Assembly: GCA_964016885.1 (NCBI GenBank)
Contig: OZ024758.1
Coordinates: 9,982,001 to 10,046,000 of the forward strand
Direction of reading: 5' to 3'
DNA: 64,000 bases
Source of the DNA: Eledone cirrhosa
Lineage: Eukaryota
A program made the position numbers and the translations under genes. Below the pieces are notes generated by a model. The model worked only from the letters and a program-made list of their open reading frames with translations, had not been told where the DNA came from and made no database searches. Positions 7,325 to 64,000 of the stretch are shown piece after piece (the stretch's first letter is position 1; the number at the start of each line of letters is the position of its first letter).

Positions 7325-7699
7325 AACAATTTTTTTTTTTTTTTTCAAATTCAAATTAACAAACCTCGAATGCTTGCTTTAAACATTTTATCTTATTCCA
7401 CCTTTTGAATAGGAATATCATTTCTTCCTTATTTATGTTTAACCACGTAGAATAGATGATATCCGAACCGTTGAGGTAAATTATTAAGCGGAGAACATTT
7501 TAACGTTTTAAGACCGTATGAGTTTTTTGCTGTGTTGTCAGGTGAATTTGATCGTATTTTTTTTTTTTTTTTACATAAAAGTTAATTTTCTTCCTAATCC
7601 TTTTGAGAAAAAACTCAGTTTTCTGTAGTTAGTCTTTTTAATAAACTATACTTAAATGTATCGTAATGTTTTTTTCATAGAAAAACGTATCTGTGGGAC

Positions 7700-7965
7700 G
7701 CCAGTCTCCCGTTTCGGAACCATATGCAAAGGCGAGACCCACGGACTGGAAGAAGGGCGAACGATACTCAACTTCAGCATATGATTAAACTCTGCCTTAA
7801 CCGCTTTCAATTTTTCTAGAGAGAGACGACGTGGACGTGAAAATACTGGAGCACCCTTAGTCTCAATAAAATGCTTGGTAGAGTGAGTAGGGGTATATAC
7901 CACAAAGTTCAGATTAGTTAATTCCGGAAAGGAATGTAAAAGCGCATGATAAGGGCGATGAAGAA
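7700..7965 (-). pseudogene. Ty3/Gypsy LTR-retrotransposon pol fragment (N-terminus of reverse transcriptase)
   Basis: Translation HFIETKGAPVFSRPRRLSLEKLKAVKAEFNHMLKLSIVRPSSSPWVSPLHMVPK matches the classic Gypsy H.I.T.G.P...RRL...GI.RPS.SPWASPL..V.K motif. Truncated, no LTRs seen. Confidence 0.9.
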
Positions 7966-9714
7966 GACTGGAGTTTTCAATAGTGAGTTCAAGTCGTACT
8001 GTGGTGAATGTTTACTGCGATAGATCGGTGTCTTTTCCAGCGGGAGAACACTAACGATACACAGCCTTAAGGATATTTGTAACTCAGATAGGAATAACCT
8101 TTTAGTTTAAGCTTTTAAACGTTTACTTTTTCCTTATTTCTTTTTACTATATTCCGGTTGGAGATAATGATAATATTAACTTACGACAATGCCCCAAGTT
8201 TCGGAGAGTGTATAGTTGATTAGATAAACCCCAGTTCTTGCCTGGTGTTTTATTTTATTGATTCTGGAAGGATGAAAGTCATAGGTAATTTCAGATTTGA
8301 ACTCAGAACGTAAAGGTTTATAAATAAGTACTGCAAAGTATTTTTTCCGGCGGACTAACTTTTTTTGTATGCCCATCGCCATTAGAGATGTAATATTTAC
8401 CTAGTCATCCATTGTTTAGTTTTGTACGTGAATATCACATGTCATATGTCACCTAATAAATGTGTTTTAGTCCGTTCATAATAAGATAAAACCATTGCAT
8501 CCATGAGATATTTTTAGCACTGGTAAACATTTATTTCAACTGGTGACGGTGATGTTTACCAGAAAGTATTTGATGTAATGAATCTGAACAACTTTTGCAC
8601 ACAACCACCAGTCACATTTAGCAACAGAGAAAACAACATTAAACATAGAACATTGAAATGTAGAATGTTTCATACCAATTTATCAAGTGAAAGTATGGAA
8701 TATTTTCGGTGTCTGTAAAATAACAGAGATTTCTTTTGTTAGCTATTTCTAACATCGATGTAAAGATAATACAAATATAGAAATAATAGAAATATGACAT
8801 CTTCACAATGTAAGACATAAGATACATTTGTTTTGATTTTGATGGAAGCTTCGGGAAAATTATAGGGCCGTAGGAAATTGCATTATTTTAGCTATTTGAC
8901 AGGGATAAAACAAAACGTAATCCAGATAGAAGTGTTGAATAATTTAATGGCAAATTGTGAATATTATCTTGGATAGGAATACATTTGAGAATATTTCAAC
9001 AGAAAAAATAATTAGTTTAAGCTGGTAGGTTTTGAGCTGTAATACAAGGAATCTATTGAAATAAAAACACCGTATTTTTCTTAGTAGAGATACTCGTATG
9101 TAAAACATTCTTATCTCAGTCCTGCATGACGTATGATAGTTATGTAATACGAGAAAATAATAGAGAATGCGTTAATAATTACGTATAGTGTTAGAATATT
9201 TTATGCAGGAAGCATTTTAAAGCGAACAAGAAATGATTATGGTGTAAGGGAAAACATTTGTCAATGATAAGAGACAACTCCGAATATATTTCTATATTAT
9301 AAACTTCATAAATGTTGCTTTATTTGCCAAAGTAGTGATAGAAAAATCTCTAAGCAAATGTATAATAAAACGAGAATTGTTTAATGAATACAGTGCCCAG
9401 AGATGCTATCTGCATGAAAAACTATAGTTAAGTTACTGTTTATATATTTAATGCAGGGTGAGATTGAAAAGTCAACTTGTTATAATTATGCTTTAAGGAC
9501 AAAAAGCATAAAATTCAAAGGCTGGTGTCGGCAAATACGCGATTCATCATTGGACATGTCCTTGTCTTACGTTGGCCTTTATTAGTAAATGCCATGTTCT
9601 TTTCGCAAATTAACTAATTATCGGGGATATAATTTTTTTTTTTTTTTAAACACTTTAGTCTTTATTGTGTTGTATCAGATGAAAGAATGATATTTAACTA
9701 ATGTATTGGTACGC

Positions 9715-10012
9715 GATGGGGCCCACCCACAGGCCCGGCGGACAAAATGGAGAAGGCGTTTCCCCGGAGGACGGCAAGGGAGACGCGCTGGAAAATCCAC
9801 TCCAACTCGCGGGGCTCACACCTGCGGCTGGCCAGTTCAGCGCCTATGGTGGTGAGTAAGGAGGTCTCCACTGCCAGGGGAACGACCGCAAACCTGTCGG
9901 AGAGCGACCGGTATTTGAGGAGTTTGACTCCCTCAACCCGACGTGCAGCAGAACCTGGGTCAGTCGCAGACTGCACCAGGTTGCAGCTGCAGAAAGTGTC
10001 GGTGCAAGTGGC
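9715..10012 (-). pseudogene. CRE-clade (restriction-like endonuclease) non-LTR retrotransposon, 3' fragment
   Basis: DATC.DT...KYRSLSDRFAVVPLAVET...IGAELA...WIFQRVSLAVLRGNAFSIL is the typical C-terminus of CRE-type ORFs. Confidence 0.8.
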
Positions 10013-10986
10013 ATCTATAATGTGTATTAATCAACTTTTCGTTTTCGTAATGTGTCTCTTAAAGTTTAGTTGTTGTTTTTTCTTTAATTTTCAAATTCGC
10101 CTTCATAATGTTTATCTTCTTTCTAACACCGAAAATCCTTCATATTTCTTCAGCTTTGACATTCTCACCCCTATCGTCTCTCATTCATTCACTTTCAGTC
10201 TTCCCCAGCACCACCTCAGTTTGTTTTCGCTCCGTTTATGTTCAATTCTTTTGAAGATTAACGACAAGCTACTTTATGTTCTGCTCGTAAAAATAACCAA
10301 TCGTCTATAACAACTAAATGGCAAGCCTAGCAACTTCCGATCTCCATCAATATGTGGATTGCAACAGATCTAGCTTATATAATGGGAAAAGCTGTAACTA
10401 TTGTAACGAATATGGATAAAAAAATAAAGAGTCGTTATAGAAGTTGTAACAGACGAGAGTTTAATTACGGAATAAAATAAACTGTTTAAGACAATCCTTT
10501 GCAAGGACAGAACATAAAATATATGAACATAAGTTCAGAAAAGAAGAAGTCTATAAAGAAATTGAAGTGTTGAAAGGAGAAGTTTCGGCGTCTTTATGAA
10601 TAACTATTAAGGGTTGCCACAAGCGATAAACTATTAACAGCTAATGACTTACAAATAAATATCTGGTTAAATTAAAGTATTTGGACCCCGTACAGGTGAG
10701 CTTCCCCGCAAAATCGAAATGTCGGCGGCCCATCTTAGGAAGGAGCGTGGTGAGATAGCTGGCCATTGTCCGCGGGGTGCAGACCCTCAATCGCCGCACC
10801 CTTGACCCAGAGCCCCAATCATCCCCGCCATTCCCCCCTCGCCATTCTTCTGTGGCACTAGAGTTCTTGCCCCCCCCCCCTTCCCGTTTTTTTTGTTTCC
10901 TTTCCTTTTTTTTTCTCTATATTTTCCTATTTTCCATTCTTCTCAATATAAAACTGTATTACAAGATATCTTCCATAGATAAAATA

Positions 10987-12918: not shown

Positions 12919-12921
<3 letters not shown>

Positions 12922-13129
12922 TTATGTATTTTTTTTAAATGTTATTTATTCATTATACAAATTAAATAATAACATTCTATATGTAGGTAGGCCCCTTTCA
13001 TCTCCTGGCAACCAATATTTTTAGACCCAGTATTGGTTGCCAGGAGATGAAAGGGGCCTACCTACATATAGAATGCTATTATTTAATTTTTATAATGAAT
13101 AAATAACATTTTTAAAAAATACATAAGTG
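12919..13129. mobile_element. ~100-bp-arm fold-back palindrome next to (TA)n, carrying an HHR 3' half (GAAA-GGGGCC-TA)
   Basis: Near-perfect inverted arms CACTTATGTA...GGCAACCAATA / TATTGGTTGCC...TACATAAGTG with a ~12-nt loop. AATAAA lies downstream of the HHR half. Confidence 0.75.
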
Positions 13130-14288
13130 GAAACAAAACAGTGCAATCAATTTTTGCGGAAAAATATCTTGCCTTCTCCAATAAAAAAAAGTGTTGTGTG
13201 GTATTGTATGATGTGATGTAGTGTAGTATGGTGTAGTATGGTATAGTGTCGTGTAGTGTGGTATTATGAGGCAGTATGCTGTGCTGTTTTATGTTTATCA
13301 TTAGCTGTCTTCTGTCAATGTTGATAGTTTTGCCAGTTACTCACTCAAATTCGTTGTTTTATATTTATTGAAACTGTAAAGTTATTTTAATCTGTCTGGC
13401 GAAGAAGCCTCTTACAAATAATTTATTTAATCACTTGTCTTCTTCAGAATCCCACAATTTATTGTGTGACAACACTTCACACTTTATAATTTAATATTGA
13501 TAGCTAGCAACGTTTATTTGAATTTTCTCTCTGAACATCTTCTCTGTCGTCTGCTCCTTGAAATCGCAATTTCTATATAACAAAATGTGTGAAATGAGGC
13601 GAATTTGCAGAGACATTACAATGTCGGATAGAATGTTTTCCTTTATTCGTTCCGGCTCTTTGAATTCAAATCCCGTCAAAGTCAACTTTGCCTTTCATCC
13701 TTTCGAGTTCGATTACAAAAAGTACCAGTCTAGTTCTGCATCGGACCTATGCTGCAAAGTTTTCTTTAAAACCTGATTAGAAAAATAATAGGTAAATGCG
13801 TAGATATACTTTGAGGGATATATATCTGTGTGAATATTTTTTTTTTTTACTGCATTAATTCAATCTTACATGAGATCTTTAACTAATTTGCATGAGATCT
13901 TTAACTAATGATTTTCTAAACATTTTCAAATCTTTCTACGATAAAAAATATTTGAAAATAACAAGCACTGCAATTTTATCTCATAAAAACATCCTTTCTA
14001 ACAACTCCTGTTGTAACCAGTTAACAGTTTTAACGTATTTGTAACATTTTTTTTTTTTTTTCGCATCTCTAAAAATTCAGAATTCCATCCTCTCTGAATG
14101 TACATTACTTTGAATCCTGTGTTATTCATGATAATTTGTCTTGTGATATTAATAAATTTATTGATATTTTTTTTATTATATTTCCTGAAGAGATACGGTT
14201 TTTACTGATATTATCTTTCTTTTTTTTTCTCTCCACAATTGATGAGACACTCTGCCGCATTGAAACGCCCGTAGAGATGTATACATAG

Positions 14289-14699: not shown

Positions 14700-14744
<45 letters not shown>

Positions 14745-14871
14745 AAAGTTCTATTTAAATTGTTGGGATACAACAACCAAATATTTTTATAACTGATATA
14801 AAGCACTCAACAAATAATTGGAATAAAAATACGATATTAACAAATGGAAACTATATTTATAAAACCATATT

Positions 14872-14936
14872 TATTTCATTATACATATTTCAAGGACACC
14901 AAGTTAAATTATGGTGTGCTTTCATCAGATAAAATA
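14872..14936 (-). ncRNA. Type I hammerhead ribozyme motif (family P3) inside a TA-flanked insert 14742-15078
   Basis: Minus strand: TATTTTAT-CTGATGA-AAGCACACCA taatttaact TGGTGTCCTT-GAAA-TATGTA-TA-ATGAAATA. Stems I and II pair and the core is intact. Confidence 0.75.
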
Positions 14937-15076
14937 TAATATAAAGCAGTTTTATAAATAAATATTGACATACCCTTAAAGAATGCAACCATTACTGTTG
15001 GAAGCTCCCAGATAGTTGAAATATGTATAATGAAATAAATATGGTTTTATAAATATAGTTTCCATTTGTTAATATC

Positions 15077-15237
<161 letters not shown>

Positions 15238-18622: not shown

Positions 18623-19000
18623 TTATATATCACTATATATAATAGTCAAGGCGGAATAAGTGTACAAAGGCGCTGATCGACCTTTTGGAATTCTCTAACA
18701 TTTAAAAAATTTCAAACACTCCCAGCTCTCTGATAATTTATTCGGTACATTTATATCTTGTTAAGCTCTAACCCAAATGTTCTGCCAGGAAAGATTTTGA
18801 AAGCTTTAAGATAAAACTCTTTTCAGGCTGTTCATTTGGTTGACATGTAGGTTCTGATTTCAACAGGAAATGAGTTACGGCATGTACTTGTCGGGTGTGT
18901 GAATGAAATCAGTCCAAAGGGGAAAAGAAATACTGTCGCAGACACATCTCATCTACTGGTGCAGACACACCCACCCAACTAATATTAAGCGATATATTAA

Positions 19001-19322
19001 ATTTCTCCCGAATGAAACAGTTCTAGTCCTGTAGAGGCGTTTCTATATTAAATATTTATACTCTTCTTTGTATTGAGTAACTTACTTACTGTGGTTACCC
19101 CCGATTGAACCCGGGATAAACTTATATATATAACAAAGGAATTGTGGTAAGGAACCAGATGGACCATAACGCACCAGAGTACTCAATACTTAGGGTAGTA
19201 GAGTGGGAAAGATGAAGAAGTATGACCCCGACGGCAGAGCTCAAGCCGTTTCGACGGCTATTTCTGGCTATTTCAGAAATACCCGTCGAAACGGCTTGAG
19301 CTCTGCCGTCGGGGTCATACTT

Positions 19323-19362
<40 letters not shown>

Positions 19363-19487
19363 GAGTCCCAGTTCAATCGGGGTAACCACAGTAAGTAAGG
19401 TGCTCAATATATTAGTAGAGTATATACAAAATTTTATATAGAAATGGCTTCTACGGAACTAGAACTGTTTCATTCGAAGGAAATCAT

Positions 19488-19490
<3 letters not shown>
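19001..19490. mobile_element. Nested inverted structure: P2 HHR module (+), (TA)n, P1 fold-back, (TA)n, P2 module (-)
   Basis: 19001-19117 and 19366-19484 are diverged inverted copies containing GAATGAAACAGTTCTAGTCCTGTAGA. Inner palindrome at 19212-19328. Confidence 0.75.
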
Positions 19491-19564
<74 letters not shown>

Positions 19565-19565
<1 letters not shown>

Positions 19566-19755
19566 ACGGAAGAAATGTGGTAAGGAACCAGGTGGACCAT
19601 AACGCACCAAAGTACTCAATACTTAGGGTAGTAGAGTGGGTAATAGGAACGAGTAGGACCCCGACGGCTGAGCTCAAGCCGTTTCGACCGCTAATTCTGG
19701 GTCCAGAATTAGCCGTCGAAACGGCTTGAGCTCAGCCGTCGGGGTCCTACTCGTT

Positions 19756-19760
<5 letters not shown>
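19565..19760. mobile_element. P1 fold-back module in (TA)n
   Basis: Palindrome 19643-19760 with ~58-bp arms. Each arm carries GAAA-CGGC..GCCG-TC-GGGGTC. Confidence 0.8.
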
Positions 19761-21692: not shown

Positions 21693-21865
21693 TCAATTAT
21701 AAATTTAGTAACGAAAGGTTTAAAGCAGAGCTTTTGCCTATGCTTCCATTCGAAGAAATGAAAAATCTCGAAGTAATGACTGGGTGCTTCTACTAAACAC
21801 GAAAATACAACTAAATTCGTCAGACACCACAATGGCTTATACAGTCTTAATTATTTTACTTATTC

Positions 21866-21996
21866 ATAAGGATGAAAGGCAAAGTCAATCCCGCCGAGGT
21901 TGACTTTCCCTTTCATCCTTATGGGGTCGACAAAATAAAGTACCAGTAATGCCAGTGGGTAATTGCTGGCTTTGTGCCTAAAGTAGAAACAATTAT
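21866..21996 (+). mobile_element. 5'-truncated SINE A with inverted 5' segment
   Basis: CATAAGGATGAAAGGCAAAGTCAA followed by its reverse complement TTGACTTTCCCTTTCATCCTTATG, then the normal tail. Confidence 0.8.
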
Positions 21997-22754: not shown

Positions 22755-23360
22755 GTCAGGTCACCAGTTGGTGCTACTGGTAACATGTATCCCAGTACAA
22801 CCTGTCCCATGGTCGGGTCGTTGGCGACTAAACTGGCAACCCCACCAAGGTTTCTTGGTGAGGAGGGTGACTTTGGACATCCTGCAGGACTAAAAACAAA
22901 ACCTGTCAAAGGGCAAAGGAGCTCTTAAGAGTCAATGGCCATCCAAAATCACCGGGAGAGATGACCCCTTAGCCTTTGTCAAGGCAGAATTCTAGGAGAA
23001 GGAAAACTCTGATATAACACCTGCAACCCTGATGGTATCCAATGATGTTGACTTGTTCTTCTTTTTGGTAAATATCATCTTGGTTAAGAGAGTGGGACTG
23101 GCTTTGTGCAGTGCCTTTGCTCACTATAAAAGCTTCACGGCACAGGCATTGCTTTATATCTGGAGATCTCTCTGCACTTGTCGTCACATGGTACCATGGG
23201 CCCAGCACTATGTGTCAGTAATTGTCACAAGTGTAGTGTTTGTACCAGAGTTTTCAAGTCGCTGGCTGGACTAAAAAGTCACACTCGTTCAGCGCATCGG
23301 TAGGGGTTCTCCTACATGGATATAAAGTAGTGGCCGTACTCGAAAACGAGTTGGCAGCCA

Positions 23361-23745: not shown

Positions 23746-23798
<53 letters not shown>

Positions 23799-23960
23799 AA
23801 ATGTTCGCTTTAAATGGCTGAATACAATAAATGTAATCTGAGTTTTTCGTTTCGAATATTAATAATAACATTCGATTCATTTGCAATTACGCAAACAAGC
23901 CTCAATTTTATAGCCATGTCAGTAGAATGAACCCTTCATTCTTGCTCTTGTGTTAGCTAT

Positions 23961-24026
23961 GTGAACAGAATTGCAGACACTAATGTTTCTGGGTATCACC
24001 CTTCATCAGTACAGCTCACTGTTCAC
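23961..24026 (-). ncRNA. Type I hammerhead ribozyme motif with extended stem I (family P4)
   Basis: Minus strand: GTGAACAG-tgagc-TGTA-CTGATGA-aGGGT gat ACCCa-GAAA-CATTAGTG-TC-TGCA-att-CTGTTCAC. GUC cleavage triplet; 10.1-11.1 is an A.A mismatch. Confidence 0.75.
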
Positions 24027-24244
24027 CTGCCAAACTGTCAGAGCTATTGAAAATATATGCTATTTTCAAAAATACAGTGACTGATAGGCCTGATTTGCAT
24101 ATTATATATTTGTGTGTGTGTGTGTGTGAGTGTGATATGTGTACACATATATATATATATATATATATATAAACATATCAATATATATATATATATGTGA
24201 GTATGTATGTGTGTGTGTGTGTGTATTTCCTAACATTTACATAC

Positions 24245-24330
24245 GTTGAATCCATCCGTTTCACTGAGGAAGTTATTATCTCTGACGAGCCGTGTGAGAT
24301 AACTTCCTCGCTGAAAAGCGCGTATTCAAC
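24245..24330. mobile_element. Diverged fold-back carrying an HHR 3' half (GAAA-[C]GCGCG-TA-TTCAA)
   Basis: GTTGAAT..GTTTCA CTGAGGAAGTTAT..TCTC / GAGATAACTTCCTC GCTGAAAAGCGCGTATTCAAC. Confidence 0.55.
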
Positions 24331-24428
24331 ATACAAACTCTTTTACTTGTTCCAGCCATCCGGCTGAGGTCATGCTGGGGCACCGCCATTGTTGCTACAA
24401 ATTAACCAAGTTATGTATATTACAACGT

Positions 24429-24489
<61 letters not shown>

Positions 24490-24494
<5 letters not shown>

Positions 24495-24781
24495 AAAAAG
24501 AGATGAAATCGAAAATGCAACCGAAGTCTTATTTTTTTTTTAAATATATATACTTATTTGGTTCCTTTACCGTTTCGCAGTTCTTCTGCTTTTCAAAAGG
24601 TGAGTTGAGATGGAGGGTCTGTGGTTTTTCTCACATCTGAAAAACCACAGACCCTCCATCTCAACCCACCTTTTGAAAAGCAGAAGAACTGCGAATCCGG
24701 TAAAGGAACCAAAGAAATATATATATTTTAAAAAAAAATAAGACTTCGGTTGCATTTTCGATTTCATCTCTTTTTCTTTAT
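24490..24781. mobile_element. ~140-bp-arm palindrome with a minimal U3-A8 variant hammerhead in each arm (family P5)
   Basis: Arms 24490-24630 and 24639-24781, 8-nt loop. Motif consensus CCTT-TTGAAAA-GCAG aagaa CTGC-GAAA-CCGG-TA-AAGG at 24564-24600 (-) and 24669-24706 (+). Each copy has one lesion. Confidence 0.75.
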
Positions 24782-24837
24782 ACTTCCACTCGTGTAGGAC
24801 ACCTCGGTTATTTTTCATTTTGTAAAACAAACCTCAC

Positions 24838-24880
<43 letters not shown>

Positions 24881-25011
24881 AAAGTTCTATTTAAAGTTGT
24901 TGGGATACAACAAGTAAATTATAAGCAAATCACTATCCAGACAGCCTCCAAAAGTAATGGTTGTATTTTAAAAGGGTACGTCAAAGCTATTTGTAAAACT
25001 GTTATATATTG

Positions 25012-25076
25012 TATTTTGTCTGATGAAGGCATACCATAATTTTATGTGGTATCCCTGAAATATGTATAATGAAATA
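25012..25076 (+). ncRNA. Type I hammerhead ribozyme motif (family P3) in TA-flanked insert ~24878-25116
   Basis: TATTTTGT-CTGATGA-AGGcATACCA taattttatg TGGTATcCCT-GAAA-TATGTA-TA-ATGAAATA. Stem II covaries relative to 14872-14936. Confidence 0.78.
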
Positions 25077-25115
25077 AATATGGTTTTATAAATATAGTTT
25101 CCATTTATTAATATC

Positions 25116-25227
<112 letters not shown>

Positions 25228-25267
25228 AAATAAAAAGTCAAATGTTTAAAATTTATCTTCGTTTATT

Positions 25268-25322
25268 ACTGCTATATATATTTCAGTGACAGCCATCTTT
25301 GGCTGTGACCTCTTCAGGCAGT
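25268..25322 (-). ncRNA. Type I hammerhead ribozyme motif (family P6)
   Basis: Minus strand: ACTGC-CTGAAGA-GGTcACAGCCA aaga TGGCTGTcACT-GAAA-TATATA-TA-GCAGT, followed by AATAAA. Stem I is perfect and stem III is palindromic. Confidence 0.82.
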
Positions 25323-25850
25323 TTGAATTAGTATGGTATAGACAAGTACATATGTTGTTGAGGTGTATAATATTGTCAATACTCTGATATGTTGGTATAC
25401 AACCAACATATACTCAAAATCTCTCTCTCTATATATATATATATACTACTACCAGTACATTTTATCAAAGTCTATGAGGCACTTCAGAAAAGGACATTGT
25501 CCTTTTTCCTCTGGCGTAATACATAAAATATATATTATATTATATATTAATATATATCTGACTGATTGTTGTTTGAATACGCAATAGGGGGGGGGGGGGG
25601 GATAGTATGGTACCTCACACTTTTCCTGGCTCTAATGTGTATTGTAAAGCCTCTGGTGAGTAGCGAAACCCCAGCCTGCTGTACAACTTACCAAGAACTT
25701 TGAATGAGCCACGAATTGAATGATTTGCTGTATTTGCCTTCTGACTCTCTGTATTCCTTGTGTTCAAATCTTACAGAGGTCAATTTTCCGGTGGTTAAAA
25801 AGTATCAGCCCAGCCCTGAGGTGGATTCTTCTCTACAACTCATTCTCACT

Positions 25851-37984: not shown

Positions 37985-38058
37985 AGGCTCCGGAGGGATT
38001 CGAACCCTCGACCTCCAGTTTACTAGACTGGCGCTCTAACCAACTGAGCTACGGAGCC
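37985..38058 (-). tRNA. tRNA-Thr (anticodon AGT)
   Basis: Minus strand: GGCTCCG TA GCTC AGTTGGTTA GAGC G CCAGT CTAGTAA ACTGG AGGTC GAGGG TTCGAAT CCCTC CGGAGCC T. All four stems pair perfectly and the A/B boxes are intact. No encoded CCA. Confidence 0.97.
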
Positions 38059-38312: not shown

Positions 38313-38719
38313 AATCATCATCATCATTCGTCGACTACTGTCGAGATGATGGATCTCACTCTCATGCCCCAGAATTCCCTGTCCCCCATCGCTGCCCCCA
38401 GGTCCTGTCTACTGATTCCCGTATCCCTAGAGATAACGTCAGGGAATGACAGCTTCCTACTCCTAGTCAGGCTGGAGTCAGGGTTCCAGAGCAAGAGAGC
38501 GGATATGATTTCATTGCTGGCACGGTGACAGTGGCCAGCAAATTGAGCTCTCCGGGATTTTAGAAGGGCAGAGGCTCGAAGGAGTTTGCCATAGATTTTA
38601 GACAAGGTGGGATGTCGTTTCCAGGATAGGTTTTGCACTCTCATTAAGAGGCGGGTATATGTGCCATCCAATCTCCTCTCAAGTTGTGATGTTAGTGTCC
38701 AAGTTTCGGATCCATAAAG
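38313..38719 (-). pseudogene. RTE/RTEX-like LINE 3' fragment inserted into a SINE B copy (38215-38885)
   Basis: Open frame LYGSETWTLTSQLERRLDGTYTRLLMRVQNLSWKRH...RRAQFAGHCHR...MGDREFW...*, followed by a (TGA)n tail. Confidence 0.88.
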
Positions 38720-39579
38720 TTTGAGTCCAGTACTGAGTCGATTCTTCCTCTATACCTCTTTCTTGCTTCCTCTTTGTAATCCCCTCTTTCTCGCTCTCTC
38801 TCTCCGGAAGAAATTCGTCTTTGTTCAGACCTGGAATGTGGTTGAGCTCCGCCATGTTAAAAATGCCCAAAGCACGTTGTATGTCAACTTAGTTTAAACA
38901 AAGAAACAACAACATAGCATTAATGTAATATTTATTAGAACGACGAACTTTCCAACTGGGCTTCGGGGTTTATTGGAATACACACTTAAATATTATTGTT
39001 GAGAGCTATTACGTAAAATTAGAATGAATAATGGTGCTCAAAGGTGTAATTACCAACAACAACATTCATTGTTGTTATGGTGACAGGGTGTTACATTTAT
39101 TCAAGTATTCTTATACACTCTCAACCAATGTTTGCTTCAGGGTCTCGTCACCCACTTTCACATGCAAAATGTTTCACCTGCCCACCAGTATAATAAATAT
39201 TCCAAAAAATACCCAAAATTGTTAACACTTACAAAACAATTGTCAATAGCAATACACCATGTATGTATGTATCTATGTATGTATCTATGTATCTATGTAT
39301 GTATGTATGTATGTATGTATGTATGTATGTATGTATGTATCTATGTATGTATGTATGTATGTATCTATGTATGTATGTATCTATCTATCTATCTATGTAT
39401 GTATGTATGTTCTTCTGGTTTTATAATTTCACAAAGTTTTACCAATAGAGAGAGAGAGAGTCGGTTTCTAACATAGACACAAGTCTCACTCATTGGAATT
39501 TACACAACATCAACTAGGTAGATATGTATGTATGTCTGCATCTGTAGATATGGATGTTATTGTATGTATGGATGTTACA

Positions 39580-40529: not shown

Positions 40530-41075
40530 GTGCTGGCCTCCCCACAGCCCCGGCGGACAGGATGGAGAAGGCGTTTCCCAGGAGGATGGTAAGGGAGATG
40601 CACTGGAAGAGCCATTCCAACTCGCGAGGCTCACACCTGTGACTGGCCAGCTCAGCGCCTATGGTGGTGAATAGGGAGGTAGCCCTGGGGCCAAGGACAC
40701 CAGACGTCTCCACACTGCCAGGGGTACGCCCGCAAACCTGTCCGAGAGCGACCGGTACTTGGAGAGTTTGGCCTCCTCAGCCCAACCCGGGTTAATCGCA
40801 GATAACACCAGGTTGCGGCTGGAGAAAGTTTCGCTGCAAGTGGCATCGCAGACGGGAGGGTTTGGCACCGCCGAATGGTCCAACCCCACCGGCTCGAGCT
40901 GGGAGGTGAAGCCTGCCGCGTCCAAGCCATGCTTTATGACCTCGTTGAGGGCAGCATGCATGGAAGGCGGCAGGCACTGTGGCGACAGGAAACCCGGTGG
41001 AGGCCGAAAGATTCCACGATGGATCCACGGCGACATTTATGTGGCTCGCAGATCCGGAGTCCAAGCCTCAAGGAA
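40530..41075 (-). pseudogene. CRE-clade non-LTR retrotransposon fragment (zinc knuckle plus restriction-like endonuclease)
   Basis: LRLGLRICEPHKCRRGSIVESFGLHRVSCRHSA..(fs)HAALNEVIKHGLDAAGFTSQLEPVGLD..DATCSET..AEEAKLSKYRSL..VETSGVLGP..WLFQCISLTILLGNA. Frameshifted. Confidence 0.85.
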
Positions 41076-41114
41076 CAGTCCATTTTGCATTATTTAGTCT
41101 TCTATTTAGTCTTT

Positions 41115-41269
41115 AGGCTAAAAGAGATAGAAGACTAAATAATTGTTTCTACGTTAGGCACAAGGCCAGCAATTACCCAGTGCAATAAAGTACCAGTAAT
41201 GCACTGGGTAATTGCTGGCCTTGTGCCTAACGTAGAAACAATTATTTAGTGTTCTATCTCTTTTAGCCT
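41115..41269. mobile_element. Fold-back of SINE A tail plus ~25 bp of flanking DNA
   Basis: ~70-bp near-perfect inverted arms. Confidence 0.85.
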
Positions 41270-41286
41270 TCTATCTCTTTCAACGC

Positions 41287-41344
<58 letters not shown>

Positions 41345-45021: not shown

Positions 45022-45027
<6 letters not shown>

Positions 45028-45149
45028 CCACTGTGGAAACATTTGTAAGCACACAGAATAAATTACCTTTTTATGATGTCTACCTGTTATTATTCATTCT
45101 TTATATATATATATAAAGTGTGCTTACAAATGTTTCCACGGTGGTTATA
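45022..45149. mobile_element. Tail-to-tail inverted 32-bp arms around a (TA)n tract, with an HHR-like 3' half (GAAACATTTGTA-AGC)
   Basis: TATAACCACTGTGGAAACATTTGTAAGCACAC ... GTGTGCTTACAAATGTTTCCACGGTGGTTATA. Confidence 0.55.
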
Positions 45150-49946: not shown

Positions 49947-50538
49947 GAGATGACCCCTTAGCCTTTGTCAAGGCAGAATTCTAGGAGAAGGAAAACTCTG
50001 ATATAACACCTGCAACCCTGATGGTATCCAATGATGTTGACTTGTTCTTCTTTTTGGTAAATATCATCTTGGTTAAGAGAGTGGGACTGGCTTTGTGCAG
50101 TGCCTTTGCTCACTATAAAAGCTTCACGGCACAGGCATTGCTTTATATCTGGAGATCTCTCTGCACTTGTCGTCACATGGTACCATGGGCCCAGCACTAT
50201 GTGTCAATAATTGTCACAAGTGTAGTATTTGTACCAGAGTTTTCAAGTCGCTGGCTGGACTAAAAAGTCACACTGGTTCAGCGCTTCGGTAGGAGTTCTC
50301 CTACATGGATATAAAGTAGTGGCCGTACTCGAAAACGAGTTGGCAGCCACCATGTATGTATGTATGTACCATAGGCCCAGCACTATGTGTCAATAATTGT
50401 CACAAGTGTAGTGTTTGTACCAGAGTTTTCAAGTCGCTGGCTGGACTCAAAAGTCACACTCGTTCAGCGCTTCGGTAGGAGTTCTCCTACATGGATATAA
50501 AGTAGTGGCCGTACTCGAAAACGAGTTGGCAGCCACCA
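49947..50538 (+). mobile_element. Family E: 5'-truncated copy (49947-50352) plus a second, shorter 3' copy (50366-50538), in (TATG)n
   Basis: Near-identical to 22958-23363. Confidence 0.85.
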
Positions 50539-52626: not shown

Positions 52627-52690
<64 letters not shown>

Positions 52691-52746
52691 CAATTGTTTG
52701 TATTTATAATCATTTTCTGCGTTCGAAATTTTCTATAATTTCCAAG

Positions 52747-52800
<54 letters not shown>

Positions 52801-52802
<2 letters not shown>

Positions 52803-52958
52803 CGAAGGAAATGTGGTAAGGAACCAGATGGACCATAATGCACCAAAGTACTCAATACTTAGGGTAGTAGAGTGGGTAATAGGAACAAGTAGGACCCCGA
52901 CGAATTAGCCGTCGAAACGGCTTCAGCTCAGCCGTCGGGGTCCTACTTGTTCCTATTA
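52801..52958. mobile_element. P1 fold-back module with central deletion, in (TA)n
   Basis: Nearly identical to 19565-19760 but lacks most of the left inner arm. Confidence 0.8.
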
Positions 52959-52987
52959 TATATATATATATTTGTTCAATATAGAAA

Positions 52988-53038
52988 AGCTTCTACAGGA
53001 CTAGAACTGTTTCATTCGGGAGAAATCATCAGGAAGCT
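52988..53038 (-). ncRNA. Type I hammerhead ribozyme motif (family P2)
   Basis: Minus strand: AGCTTC-CTGATGA-tTTC tccc GAAt-GAAA-CAG ttctagtc CTG-TA-GAAGCT. 6-bp stem I, 4-bp stem III, GUA cleavage triplet; 10.1-11.1 is U.U. Confidence 0.8.
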
Positions 53039-53284
53039 GACTGTCCAAGTAAATATGGTGGCATTTATATCTTTTCTGGTTGTAGGAGAGGGTGGGGATT
53101 GGGATGGGTGGAGGTCATTGGTTGATGGGTTTAAAGAAAAAAGAATTCTTTAAAAGCTAATTCTTTAAAGCTATAATTTATATTTAGAGTGATAAAGGCA
53201 GAAAGAATACTATAAACAAGTTCAGATTTGACGAGTTCCACTCCACTTGGTAAACGAATGAGGTTGGATCTTCTTGATCGACTG

Positions 53285-53321
<37 letters not shown>

Positions 53322-54566
53322 TGAAGAATAAGGCAGTATTTGGGAATCTTACATCATTATAAATATATATAAATATGTATGTTGATAGAGAGAGGAAGGA
53401 GAACAATAAAAGAGAGACTTTATGATAGTTAAAAGTCAATATACAAGCTATCTCGTCTTTAGTCGTGTCAGAAATATTCTGTAAATTTTGGTATCAATAC
53501 TCGTTTACTCTGTTAATCTTTTACTTGCTTTCATCCCACATACAGTGCCTATAGTGGCGACGTTTTTAAATATTTCGTTTTTTTTTTTTTTAAATTAACG
53601 TCTCACAAACAACAATCCTAAACTCCTTTCGATTTTTTAAAACGATCGACAAGATCCCATACCTCGCTTGCCGAGTGGGGTGGAAGAAATCGGGCCAACG
53701 AAACGAAACAATTTTTCCATTTGTCTTTCCATTGCTGATATTATCTACCGGTTGCAGCTCCTGGCAGAAAGAGCAACGTGAAATAAAGTGTCTTCCTCAA
53801 TGACATAACACATCATCACCTGAGCCGGGAATCGAACTCACAACCTTACGATTACGAATCTAATTCTCTAACTGCTAAGCCACGCGCCATTTTGTCGATA
53901 ATTTTTGGAAATAATGAGAAATAATGGAAATAATGGAAATATTGGCTACAAACATGAATTATTAATGGTGCATAGTTTAGTGCTGGAGGTGGCAATATCG
54001 AATTTCGACCTTATAAACATATTATCAATCTCATTCAGATGGTGAGCTGGAATTATTATCCATATTACTGATATTGTACTATGTCTCATGTCACATCTGT
54101 AATTCTACTTGCTTTGACAAGCGTCCCTTTTCCCAATTGTAATAGCCATAGGATGTCCTTATCGGAGATTCCCCTTCAATGATTTTAATGATATTTCCAA
54201 CTGGAACTGAAGATAAAAAGAAAATTAAATCAAAATTCTAAAAGGTATCACGATAAAGACACTTTAACGCCGGTTGCCTGAGCCTATAGCATTAGTTTTA
54301 ATCTTTACTTCATAGAGTTAAAAGCTGATTCGTATTCTGTTTAAAGGGAGCAAAGAATTACATCTTCGATATCAACAGCGAAACATTGCACAATGTATTT
54401 AGAGAAACGCCTTATAGCACGAATGTTTCACAATTTCCATGTAAAATATTTCTCACATCTTGATAGAAAACAGTTGATAGTTGAAAGACGCAGTTAAAGA
54501 GTAAGATAAAGAAGAGGAGTTGTGGTAACGAAGTGGTTTCGTGCTGAACTGTTCAACGTGTTACTT

Positions 54567-55904: not shown

Positions 55905-57383
55905 TGGTGGCTGCCAACTCGTTTTCGAGTACGGCCACTACTTTATATCCATGTAGGAGAACCCCTACCGATGCGCTGAACGAGTGTGACTTTTTAGTCC
56001 AGCCAGCGACTTGAAAACTCTGGTACAAACACTACACTTGTGACAATTATTGACACATAGTGCTGGGCCCATGGTACCATGTGATGACAAGTGCAGAGAT
56101 CTCCAGATATAAAGCAATGCCTGTGTCGTGAAGCTTTTATAGTGAGCAAAGGCACTGCACAAAGCCAGTCCCACTCTCTTAACCAAGATGATATTTATCA
56201 AAAAGAAGAACAAGTCAACATCATTGGATACCATCAGGGTTGCAAGTGTTATATCAGAGTTTTTCTTCTCCTAGAATTCTTCTTTGACAAAGGCTAAGGG
56301 GTCATCTCTCCCGGTGATTTTGGATGGCCATTGACTCTTAAGAGCTCCTTTGCCCTTTGCCAGGTTTTGATTTTAGTCCTGCGGGATGTCCAAAGTGACC
56401 CTCCTCACCAAGAAACCTTGGTGGGGTTGCCAGTTTAGTCGCCAACGACTCGACTATGAGACAGGTTGTACTGGGATACATGTTACCAGTAGCACCAACT
56501 GGTGACCTGACATACATACATATATGCATACGTACATACATACACACATGCATACGTACATGGATACGTACATACATACGTACATGCATACGTACATACA
56601 TACACACATACATATACACATACATACACATACATACACACACACACACATACATACATGAATACATACTTACACATACATACACGCACATACATGCATG
56701 CATATATATACATACACACACATACATACATACATACATACATACATACATACATACATACATACATACATACATGGTGGCTGCCAACTCGTTTTCGAGT
56801 ACGGCCACTACTTTATATCCATGTAGGAGAACCCCTACCGATGCGCTGAACGAGTGTGACGTTTTAGTCCAGCCAGCGACTTGAAAACTCTGGTACAAAC
56901 AATACACTTGTGACAATCATTGACACTTAGTGCTGGGCCCATGGTTCCATGTGACGACAAGTGCAGAGAGATCTCCAGATATAAAGCAATGCCTGTGCCG
57001 TGAAGCTTTTATAGTGAGCAAAGGCACTGCACAAAGCCAGTCCCACTCTCTTAACCAAGATGATATTTACCAAAAAGAAGAACAAGTCAACATCATTGGA
57101 TACCATCAGGGTTGCAGGTGTTATATCAGAGTTTTCCTTCTCCTAGAATTCTGCCTTGACAAAGGCTAAGGGGTCATCTCTCCCGGTGATTTTGGATGGC
57201 CATTGACTCTTAAGAGCTCCTTTGCCCTTTGACAGGTTTTGTTTTTAGTCCTGCAGGATGTCCAAAGTCACCCTCCTCACCAAGAAAACTTGGTGGGGTT
57301 GCAAGTTTAGTCGCCAACGACTCGACTATGAGACAGGTTGTACTGGGATACATGTTACCAGTAGCACCAACTGGTGACCTGAC
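55905..57383 (-). mobile_element. Two full-length family E copies in tandem (55905-56511, 56775-57383)
   Basis: Reverse complements of 22755-23363. Each is followed by the same complex (CATA)n/CGTA spacer. Confidence 0.88.
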
Positions 57384-62490: not shown

Positions 62491-64000
62491 ATAATCTGTA
62501 GCTATTCTTAACTCTATCAACAACACAGTATTTTTGTTGCTTGCATATATATTTTCTATTTCTACATCGGCATTCATTTTTTTTTTTTTTTCTATTATAA
62601 CAATCACTTTCCTGGATGTGTTTTATTCTAATTTTTGGTCACCTATCTTTTCTATTGGAAATCTCTGCTGTAATTGTTCTCAGTGCTACGTTCATTCATT
62701 AATTCTGATCTGCCTTTATCCATTCAATAGATATGTTTAAACTGTCATGTTGTCTACTTTTGAGAGATGTTATAACATTCACATGGAATGCACTGAATAT
62801 CTTTCATCGTTTTACTTCAGGCAGTTTCTCTCATTTTCTTTCGGTTTCCTCATAGGTCATCATTAGGATTATATTCAAATCAAGTAACAAACGTGCTTTC
62901 AACAGGTTTCTTTCCTATTCATCAACATTTATTATCGTTTTGTTTTTTAATATATTTTTAAATTTTTCTTATTGGTTGCTGCTTCCAGAGTTTTTGCTCT
63001 TCTTCTTACAATTGACTCTTCTTTCAGGGCACTATTTGTGTGTGTGTGTTTGTTTGTTTGTTTTTCGGATTCCTTCTCAAGCTTTATGTAGTTCTCGTAC
63101 TGACAGTCAAGTTACTTATTCTATAATTTATTTATAACCATATATAAAAATGTTATCACATAGTGATAACTTTTTATATTTGGTTATAAATTATCTGCAT
63201 GTTCTCCATTCAATTATTTCTACACCAAGCGCACTTTTAAAAGTATATTTGATAGCTTCTGCTTTGTTGCTAGCTGTTTTATTGACCTATGCATTGGTTT
63301 CAGACCAGATTTAAGCGGCTTTTCTACGTTTTTCTTATTGCAAAATAGTTTATGAGGAAAAATCACAACACTATCTTCTCGCTGTTTTCATAAAGACATT
63401 TCTCTTCACAATCACTTTACGCCAATATGACCGATTCGCTGATTGTCCAGAGAGGTTTTTATGAAATTGAGATATCTTAAAGCACATACAAAGAAAAGAC
63501 TTTCCTTAAATATTTCTTTGTTGAACTTAATTTTCATTATGGAAAGTTCTATTACTAAAAACCTGCTTCAAATTCGGTGTTATTTGAGAAAGAGAAAATG
63601 TTCATCTTTGTCGAACGTCGAACAAAATATGATACCTATCCAACCAACTCCGCATCGGTACAAGTATCATTCTGATTGCCGTTAAATCTATTATATCCTC
63701 TTCCCTTTTTTAAATAATAGCCATATTATATCCCGAGTTTTAGATATTGCCTCTTATTATATAAAGTTTATATACGGCTATTACACTTTAGTATTTCAAA
63801 TACAAATATACACCCATGTGAATGGTTATACGCGACGTTTGGGTGCAAAATTATTGAAGAAACAGGGAAAATGGCGGCAACTATTAAAATGTATAACCCA
63901 TGCGTGTAGTAGGAAAATTACCGAGAAGCCAGTAACAAGACGATTTGCTACATATGTAAACCCCATCCCCAACGCTTTTGGTAAATCTTTTTAATTATGT

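Follow-up and report, generated by a model that had tools for sequence, protein, structure and literature searches.

At 52748-53037 of a 64,000-nt stretch of Eledone cirrhosa DNA (GCA_964016885.1, contig OZ024758.1; hereafter the window), the plus strand reads a (TA)n tract, a fold-back named P1, a second (TA)n tract and a hammerhead ribozyme named P2 that lies on the minus strand. The original prediction regarded P1 and P2 as two different hammerhead modules and noted the same order and orientation at 19.13-19.49 kb. It proposed that either one composite element carries both ribozymes around an internal TA tract and could excise a unit-length RNA, or one family preferentially inserts into the TA tail of the other. 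We asked which of these accounts, if either, explains how P1 and P2 come to lie side by side.

We began by dissecting the locus. The (TA)n tract at 52748-52801 is the left remnant of the target and is followed by a P1 copy, P1c. The long arm of P1c (52802-52901, minus strand) starts at a GUC cleavage triplet (52901-52899), runs 97 nt to the TA tract and has neither GAAA nor a core; it includes a tail of ~77 nt that is missing from the short arm. The short arm (52902-52956, plus strand) holds the 3' half of a type I hammerhead: one helix II strand, GAAAC at 52914-52918, helix III with a near-palindromic loop and GUC at 52934-52936. This arm ends 20 nt past the cleavage site. The center of P1c is 43 nt shorter than in the 19 kb copies, the minus arm being cut back to the GUC triplet. 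A 15-nt (TA)n spacer (52957-52971) leads to P2c, a 5'-truncated minus-strand element of ~316 nt (52972-53287) with a short 3' end, 23 nt past the cleavage site; where it begins, at the 5' junction, there is a fold-back of 6 bp. The upstream 250 nt of P2c are single copy within the window, and the (TA)n tract at 53288-53318 is the right target remnant. Directly left of P1c, 57 nt of unique AT-rich sequence (52691-52747), also single copy in the window, lie between two TA tracts; this segment was considered as a further half ribozyme and was unconvincing.

P2c carries the single complete ribozyme of the two loci. As predicted, P2 at 52.8-53.04 kb lies on the minus strand with a complete core: a type I descriptor was passed at 53032(-), and the match spans 52989-53037. 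The core consists of CUGAUGA (53032-53026), GAAAC (53013-53009, with GAAA at 53013-53010) and GUA (52996-52994), and the predicted cut falls after the GUA at 52994 on the minus strand. Helix I has 5 bp, helix II is weak, with 3 bp over a U-U mismatch, and helix III has a loop centered on CUAG. P2c is no more stable than shuffled sequences (z 0.11; hammerhead fold -6.0 versus MFE -7.7 kcal/mol), and its activity is no more than plausible. The accessible text of PMC7229834 describes a U-U pair at the helix II base of the weakly active axolotl ribozyme HHR_Amex2. The helix III strand of P2 had a computed homodimer energy of -12.8 kcal/mol. The complete core did not extend to the second locus: in P2 at 19.4 kb the 5' strand of helix I is gone, as is the first half of the core. 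Of the two copies at 19 kb, P2a is truncated 13 nt and P2b 15 nt upstream of GAAA, with CUGAUGA missing from P2a and half of it missing from P2b; upstream of GAAA, P2 retains 274 nt at 53 kb (to 53287) versus 15 nt at 19.4 kb.

When the 64-kb window was scanned with the type I descriptor, five cores passed (14928-, 24009-, 25020+, 25317- and 53032-). By comparison, 200 block shuffles gave a mean of 0.1 and 181 of them had none, and the complete cores in the window are not due to chance. This density, five complete cores of four families in 64 kb, was invisible to Rfam, which detected none of them. At the gathering score the only match was a tRNA; at E≤10 over 52700-53350 there were 28 sub-threshold matches, all hairpin and TA look-alikes, and no hammerhead family.

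P1, by contrast with its description as a hammerhead module, holds the 3' half only. GAAAC, helix III and GUC are present in all four P1 copies and CUGANGA is absent from both strands of every one. Each copy has an inverted, 5'-truncated head-to-head arm, and the resulting palindrome folds as a perfect hairpin (z -9.5 against shuffles). CCGACGA at 52897 was tried as a variant core and rejected: U4 is changed, there is no helix II and helix I is out of register; it is a by-product of the fold-back junction. Mismatches in the inner palindrome were likewise rejected as traces of an ancestral helix II, each being private to a single copy. The computed homodimer energy of the P1 helix III strand was -30.7 kcal/mol. 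A search of bacterial and archaeal genomes with the P1 motif gave no matches, in keeping with an animal repeat. The 3' regions of P1 and P2 are colinear and share a TATTGAG motif at a like distance from the cut site. Their similarity is weak: the global alignment score was reached by 16-18 of 2000 shuffles and the local score by 77-88 of 2000.

We then turned to the 19 kb locus. The plus-strand order TA, P1, TA, P2(-) does recur there, at 19123-19488, as originally noted. However, the two arrangements differ internally, and this order is one slice of a four-insert pile, P2(+)/P1/P2(-)/P1. In full, the pile reads P2a(+), TA, P1a, TA, P2b(-), (CA)n(TA)n, P1b and (TA)n(GA)n. P2a (19001-19122, plus strand) is 5'-truncated at the start of helix II, lacks the core, has a long 3' end of 89 nt and is the nearest relative of P2c. 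P1a (19133-19326), also without a core, has its long arm on the minus and its short arm on the plus strand, with the fold-back center 14 nt upstream of GAAA. P2b (19360-19488, minus strand) is truncated within CUGAUGA and has a long 3' end of 92 nt. P1b (19566-19757), the nearest relative of P1c, is preceded by (CA)n(TA)n and followed by (TA)n(GA)n, without P2 on its right. A diverged P1-type fold-back, centered 17 nt upstream of GAAA, lies between TA tracts at 1337-1428 with no P2 nearby. The two-locus picture was therefore incomplete, having left out P2a, the second P1 of the 19 kb pile and the lone P1. Compound (CA)n(TA)n microsatellites (19489-19565, 52628-52690, 15078-15232 and 1190-1336) frequently adjoin inserts of P1 and of a third family, P3, and may be preferred hot spots.

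These structures are best explained if P1 and P2 are separate families of 5'-truncated ends of Penelope-like elements (PLEs), probably related, that insert independently into (TA)n, the P1-TA-P2 arrangement at two loci representing two piles. We assign this reading a probability of about 0.8. By analogy with PLE biochemistry, AT-rich DNA would be nicked by a GIY-YIG endonuclease/reverse transcriptase whose gene lies elsewhere, and the RNA would offer two alternative start points for priming cDNA. P1 and P2 have two 3' ends, a short one 20-23 nt and a long one 89-97 nt past the cut site, and the choice of start point would decide between them. Synthesis would often halt before completion, for the most part within the hammerhead or immediately beyond it. 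P1 would gain an inverted second arm in the same event, and the head-to-head palindromes indeed have their tail on one side only. All seven 3' ends that define P1 and P2 inserts, long or short, join TA tracts. TA is left on both sides of each insertion, and so the site would stay a target on which inserts of several families pile up, in whatever order they arrived.

Additional features fit the architecture of PLE ends. P2c has a complete type I hammerhead in its terminal (pLTR) region, and P1, P2a and P2b have the 3' half only. The one-sided tails measure 77 nt in P1 and 66-69 nt in P2, and the same plan of short end, long end and inverted arm is found in P3 and in two fold-backs, F5 and F7, with tails of 90, 65 and ~65 nt. 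A head-to-head inverted arm is also present in the P3 copy P3a and, as a 6-bp version, at the 5' end of P2c. Partial head-to-tail tandems (direct pLTRs) were not found among these short fragments and are expected only in longer copies. The P1 and P2 copies are too short to hold an RT-GIY-YIG ORF. A Pfam search of 149 frames (144 of the 155 complex frames of at least 55 aa, plus 5 upstream of P2c) found no RT or GIY-YIG domain; five frames had any hit, four of them C2H2 fingers and one a weak FAM210 match. The PLE parent is accordingly inferred from architecture. Two frames at the 5' end of P2c, in its upstream part (53134-53287, minus strand), may resemble the C-terminus of a PLE endonuclease; in the 52-aa frame at 53134-53289(-) the likeness is at the start. 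A protein search with this 52-aa frame compared 15 candidates and found none at E≤10, which is weak evidence. P1 and P2 work like PLE ends and probably are such ends.

P1 and P2 are not alone in stacking: other families do so in a second TA-linked pile at 23794-25420 that contains P4, F5, P3b and P6. P4 has a minus-strand hammerhead core at 24009. F5 (24492-24843) is a fold-back with a 65-nt one-sided tail and no clear ribozyme. P3b (24878-25116, plus strand) contains the complete hammerhead at 25020, a short 3' end and an inverted piece of tail, and shares one 34-nt TA tract with F5. P6, on the minus strand, has a CUGAAGA core at 25317 and a perfect 5-bp helix I. F5, P3b and P6 abut via TA or TA/GA tracts. 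A hairpin of unexplained kind lies within the pile at 24242-24333. The other P3 copy, P3a (14742-15077, minus strand), has TA on both sides, a complete hammerhead at 14928, a 61-nt inverted short arm that starts from GAAA and a 90-nt one-sided tail. In P3, helix II is long, and helix III is minimal and palindromic; 2 of 11 helix II pairs are changed on both sides between the two copies, a result reached by 119 of 500 shuffles and thus not significant. F7 (12919-13195), a fold-back of 211 nt that follows a TA tract, has arms that are 92% alike and a tail of ~65 nt ending in a GT-rich repeat; 25 nt from its center it may contain the 3' half of a ribozyme.

To put the stacking on a quantitative footing, 13 TA-attached hammerhead or fold-back inserts were listed by eye and excised, leaving 15-33 TA loci under nine settings; these are small numbers from a single window. 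The 13 inserts fall in 6-7 of the 15-33 loci (P 0.001-0.018 with loci treated as equal), and this clumping was not significant when loci were weighted by tract length (P 0.09-0.24). The presence of P1 with P2 at two loci was borderline under uniform TA targeting (P 0.03-0.11), had P values of 0.09-0.21 with length weighting, and was not significant when labels were shuffled over the occupied slots, which allows for hot spots (P 0.26-0.37). All three P2 copies share a locus with P1 (P 0.06-0.13) and three of four P1 copies touch P2; the fourth has no P2 near it. The plus-strand order is the same at the two loci, but all P1-P2 orientations occur in the window. General stacking explains the P1-P2 pattern, although a mild preference between the two families may exist. 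The suggestion that one family inserts into the TA of the other was therefore right in kind, and insertion of one family into TA beside another is supported as a general, known behavior; the specificity for P1 and P2 that the suggestion implied did not emerge, since other families stack likewise at 23.8-25.4 kb and label shuffling gave the values above.

We considered whether nested insertion reflects a real family preference, in which the P1 machinery favors TA beside P2 ends or vice versa, perhaps through recognition of related tails by one endonuclease or through the copying of both RNAs in one integration by template jumping. This variant draws on the contacts between all P2 and three of four P1 copies, on the P values obtained under uniform targeting and for all P2 with P1, and on the colinear tails with TATTGAG at a similar distance from the cleavage site; the accessible part of PMC11167929 cites recognition by the Penelope endonuclease that depends on the tail. 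However, the association loses significance once hot spots are allowed, every orientation occurs, each pair is separated by TA, as expected for separate events, and a similar motif is present in P3, which sits with other families. On balance we regard such a preference as unlikely.

A single retrozyme-like composite, in which two different hammerheads flank an internal TA tract and excise a unit-length RNA, fares far worse and is in our judgment highly improbable. The identical plus-strand order and P2 orientation at two loci speak for it. However, P1 has no catalytic core on either strand and P2b is truncated, so that two cut-competent ribozymes occur on neither strand and excision of a unit-length RNA is without basis. 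The predicted outcome for a transcript across either locus is at most one cut: minus-strand RNA at 52.8-53.0 kb would have one possible site and RNA from 19 kb none. Moreover, the P1 halves are locked in their hairpin, and the computed pairing energy of P2c helix I is -6.9 kcal/mol with the 3' strand of P2c itself versus -2.7 kcal/mol with that of P1. Spacing also disagrees between the loci: TA is reached 23 nt past the P2 cleavage site at 53 kb versus 92 nt past it at 19.4 kb, and the four P1-P2 junctions are of four different types, with microsatellite gaps of 10, 33, 77 and 15 nt. So does phylogeny, each partner having its nearest relative outside the supposed composite. P1c is identical to P1b (19.6 kb) at 95 of 100 positions versus 91 of 100 for its supposed counterpart P1a (19.1 kb), and P2c matches the plus-strand P2a (19.0 kb) at 50 of 55 positions versus 44 of 57 for P2b (19.4 kb). 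According to the available parts of PMC7229834 and bioRxiv 10.64898/2026.07.22.740005, a non-LTR retrozyme needs tandem units with two complete ribozymes. Head-to-tail tandems of a 150-450 bp unit are absent at both loci, and the only complete core is that at 53032(-), the 19 kb locus having none; we therefore rejected a retrozyme. A literature search of partial coverage, without supplements, returned no report of a two-family hammerhead composite. Least likely of all is that a P1-TA-P2 block was copied by local duplication or gene conversion, a reading that could appeal to the (CA)n(TA)n compound microsatellites beside both loci. The flanks (52691-52747, 18700-19000 and 53040-53287) are unique within the window, which rules out a local duplication; the partners are not mutual nearest relatives and lack private variants shared across P1 and P2 of both blocks.

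We also looked at where the inserts stop. In seven of nine P1, P2 and P3 insertions (the four P1 copies, P2a, P2b and the P3a short arm; P2c and P3b are the exceptions), the 5' boundary falls within the core or helix II, at a distance of 0-17 nt upstream from GAAA. A rough binomial estimate for this clustering is 1e-6 to 1e-4, made after the fact on copies that are perhaps not independent. The candidate half ribozyme of F7 lies 25 nt from the center, and F5 does not fit the helix II pattern. Private variants are common to both arms of a single P1 copy: at four of five sites over 44 nt between P1a and P1b, at the one site between P1b and P1c, and in the 1.3 kb copy. The palindromes must therefore have been made anew or homogenized. 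The simplest model that accommodates these data, tentative and in our view possible rather than probable, is that the RT stalls at a long helix II and the 3' end of the cDNA self-primes on its own helix II, or two ends anneal, deleting CUGANGA, so that the palindrome would be built anew at each insertion. The same picture would be expected from arm conversion or from a master copy truncated at the helix II point; the window contains no intact P1 ribozyme. Self-priming on an antisense template is proposed for PLE palindromes in the accessible text of PMC3846280, and the helix II model differs in needing sense RNA only. We found no proposal of a helix II fold-back in a literature search of partial coverage, without supplements. 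If the model is true, the PLE hammerhead has a structural role besides cleavage, and head-to-head palindromes are explained by a sense template. If fold-back centers match helix II genome-wide, the origin of inverted PLE ends could be tested in the existing in vitro Poseidon system.

The surrounding DNA is AT-rich and contains many microsatellites and SINE-like repeats. A dispersed repeat with a single C2H2 finger occurs in four copies (23130-23300, 50119-50289, 55968-56270 and 56838-57008; Pfam E 6e-5 to 8e-4, below the cut-off) beside TA or ATAC tracts, and is possibly a fragment of a non-LTR element. Open frames at 7652-8011, 9698-10030, 38324-38749 and 40659-41036, which resemble remnants of gypsy, restriction-like-endonuclease non-LTR and RTE/L2 elements, had no Pfam match at E≤0.01. 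An intact-looking tRNA gene lies at 37985-38058 (-) (75.8 bits; the anticodon loop reads Thr(AGU)). There are further local inverted repeats at 41089-41290, 45027-45145, 21865-21923 and 63130-63191, two of them beside TA tracts; the one at 41 kb is built of SINE-like sequence. The P1/P2 loci are ordinary nested transposon debris, not a two-ribozyme element, and they caution that families targeting TA create apparent composite elements.

We compared the inserts with known systems, as these are described in the accessible parts of the cited reports. Naiad PLEs resemble them in (TA)n preference, inverted copies and a tail, but unlike P2c have no canonical hammerhead (PMC8557442). Non-LTR retrozymes share a short, non-coding structure and a type I hammerhead, and are likely PLE-derived (PMC7229834; bioRxiv 10.64898/2026.07.22.740005). 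Minimal PLE hammerheads are dispersed and in some cases paired on opposite strands 100-700 bp apart, with a palindromic loop 3 (PMC4209133). P1 and P2 similarly occur as dispersed single motifs and as opposite-strand pairs a few hundred bp apart, with a self-complementary loop 3 suited to dimers and, in P1, C at 11.1. P2 differs in its longer helix III and in a helix II that is short and, as in HHR_Amex2 (PMC7229834), sits on a U-U mismatch.

The inserts also resemble EN+ PLEs (Penelope/Poseidon, Neptune, Nematis and Hydra) and their pLTR fragments (PMC8557442, PMC3846280, PMC11167929). PLE insertions are described with 5' truncation, an adjacent inverted copy, a one-sided tail of 30-40 bp and a (TA)n bias (PMC8557442). 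Two RT start sites bound the tail, and both strands of AT-rich DNA are cut by the enzyme (PMC11167929); head-to-head palindromes and one family inserted in another are also on record (PMC3846280). The inserts studied here differ from these published accounts in that the window contains neither an ORF nor a partial tandem, the centers of the P1 palindromes are fixed just upstream of GAAA, and the tails, at 65-90 nt versus 30-40 bp, are about twice as long; they would widen the known range of PLE tails. Both are strongly truncated on the 5' side and carry a type I hammerhead close to the 3' end, a head-to-head inverted arm with a junction palindrome and a tail that is one-sided, if longer here; both also target AT-rich or (TA)n DNA, with one family beside another. 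The P1 and P2 loci thus add one more case of hammerhead-bearing, Penelope-type fragments gathering in microsatellites.
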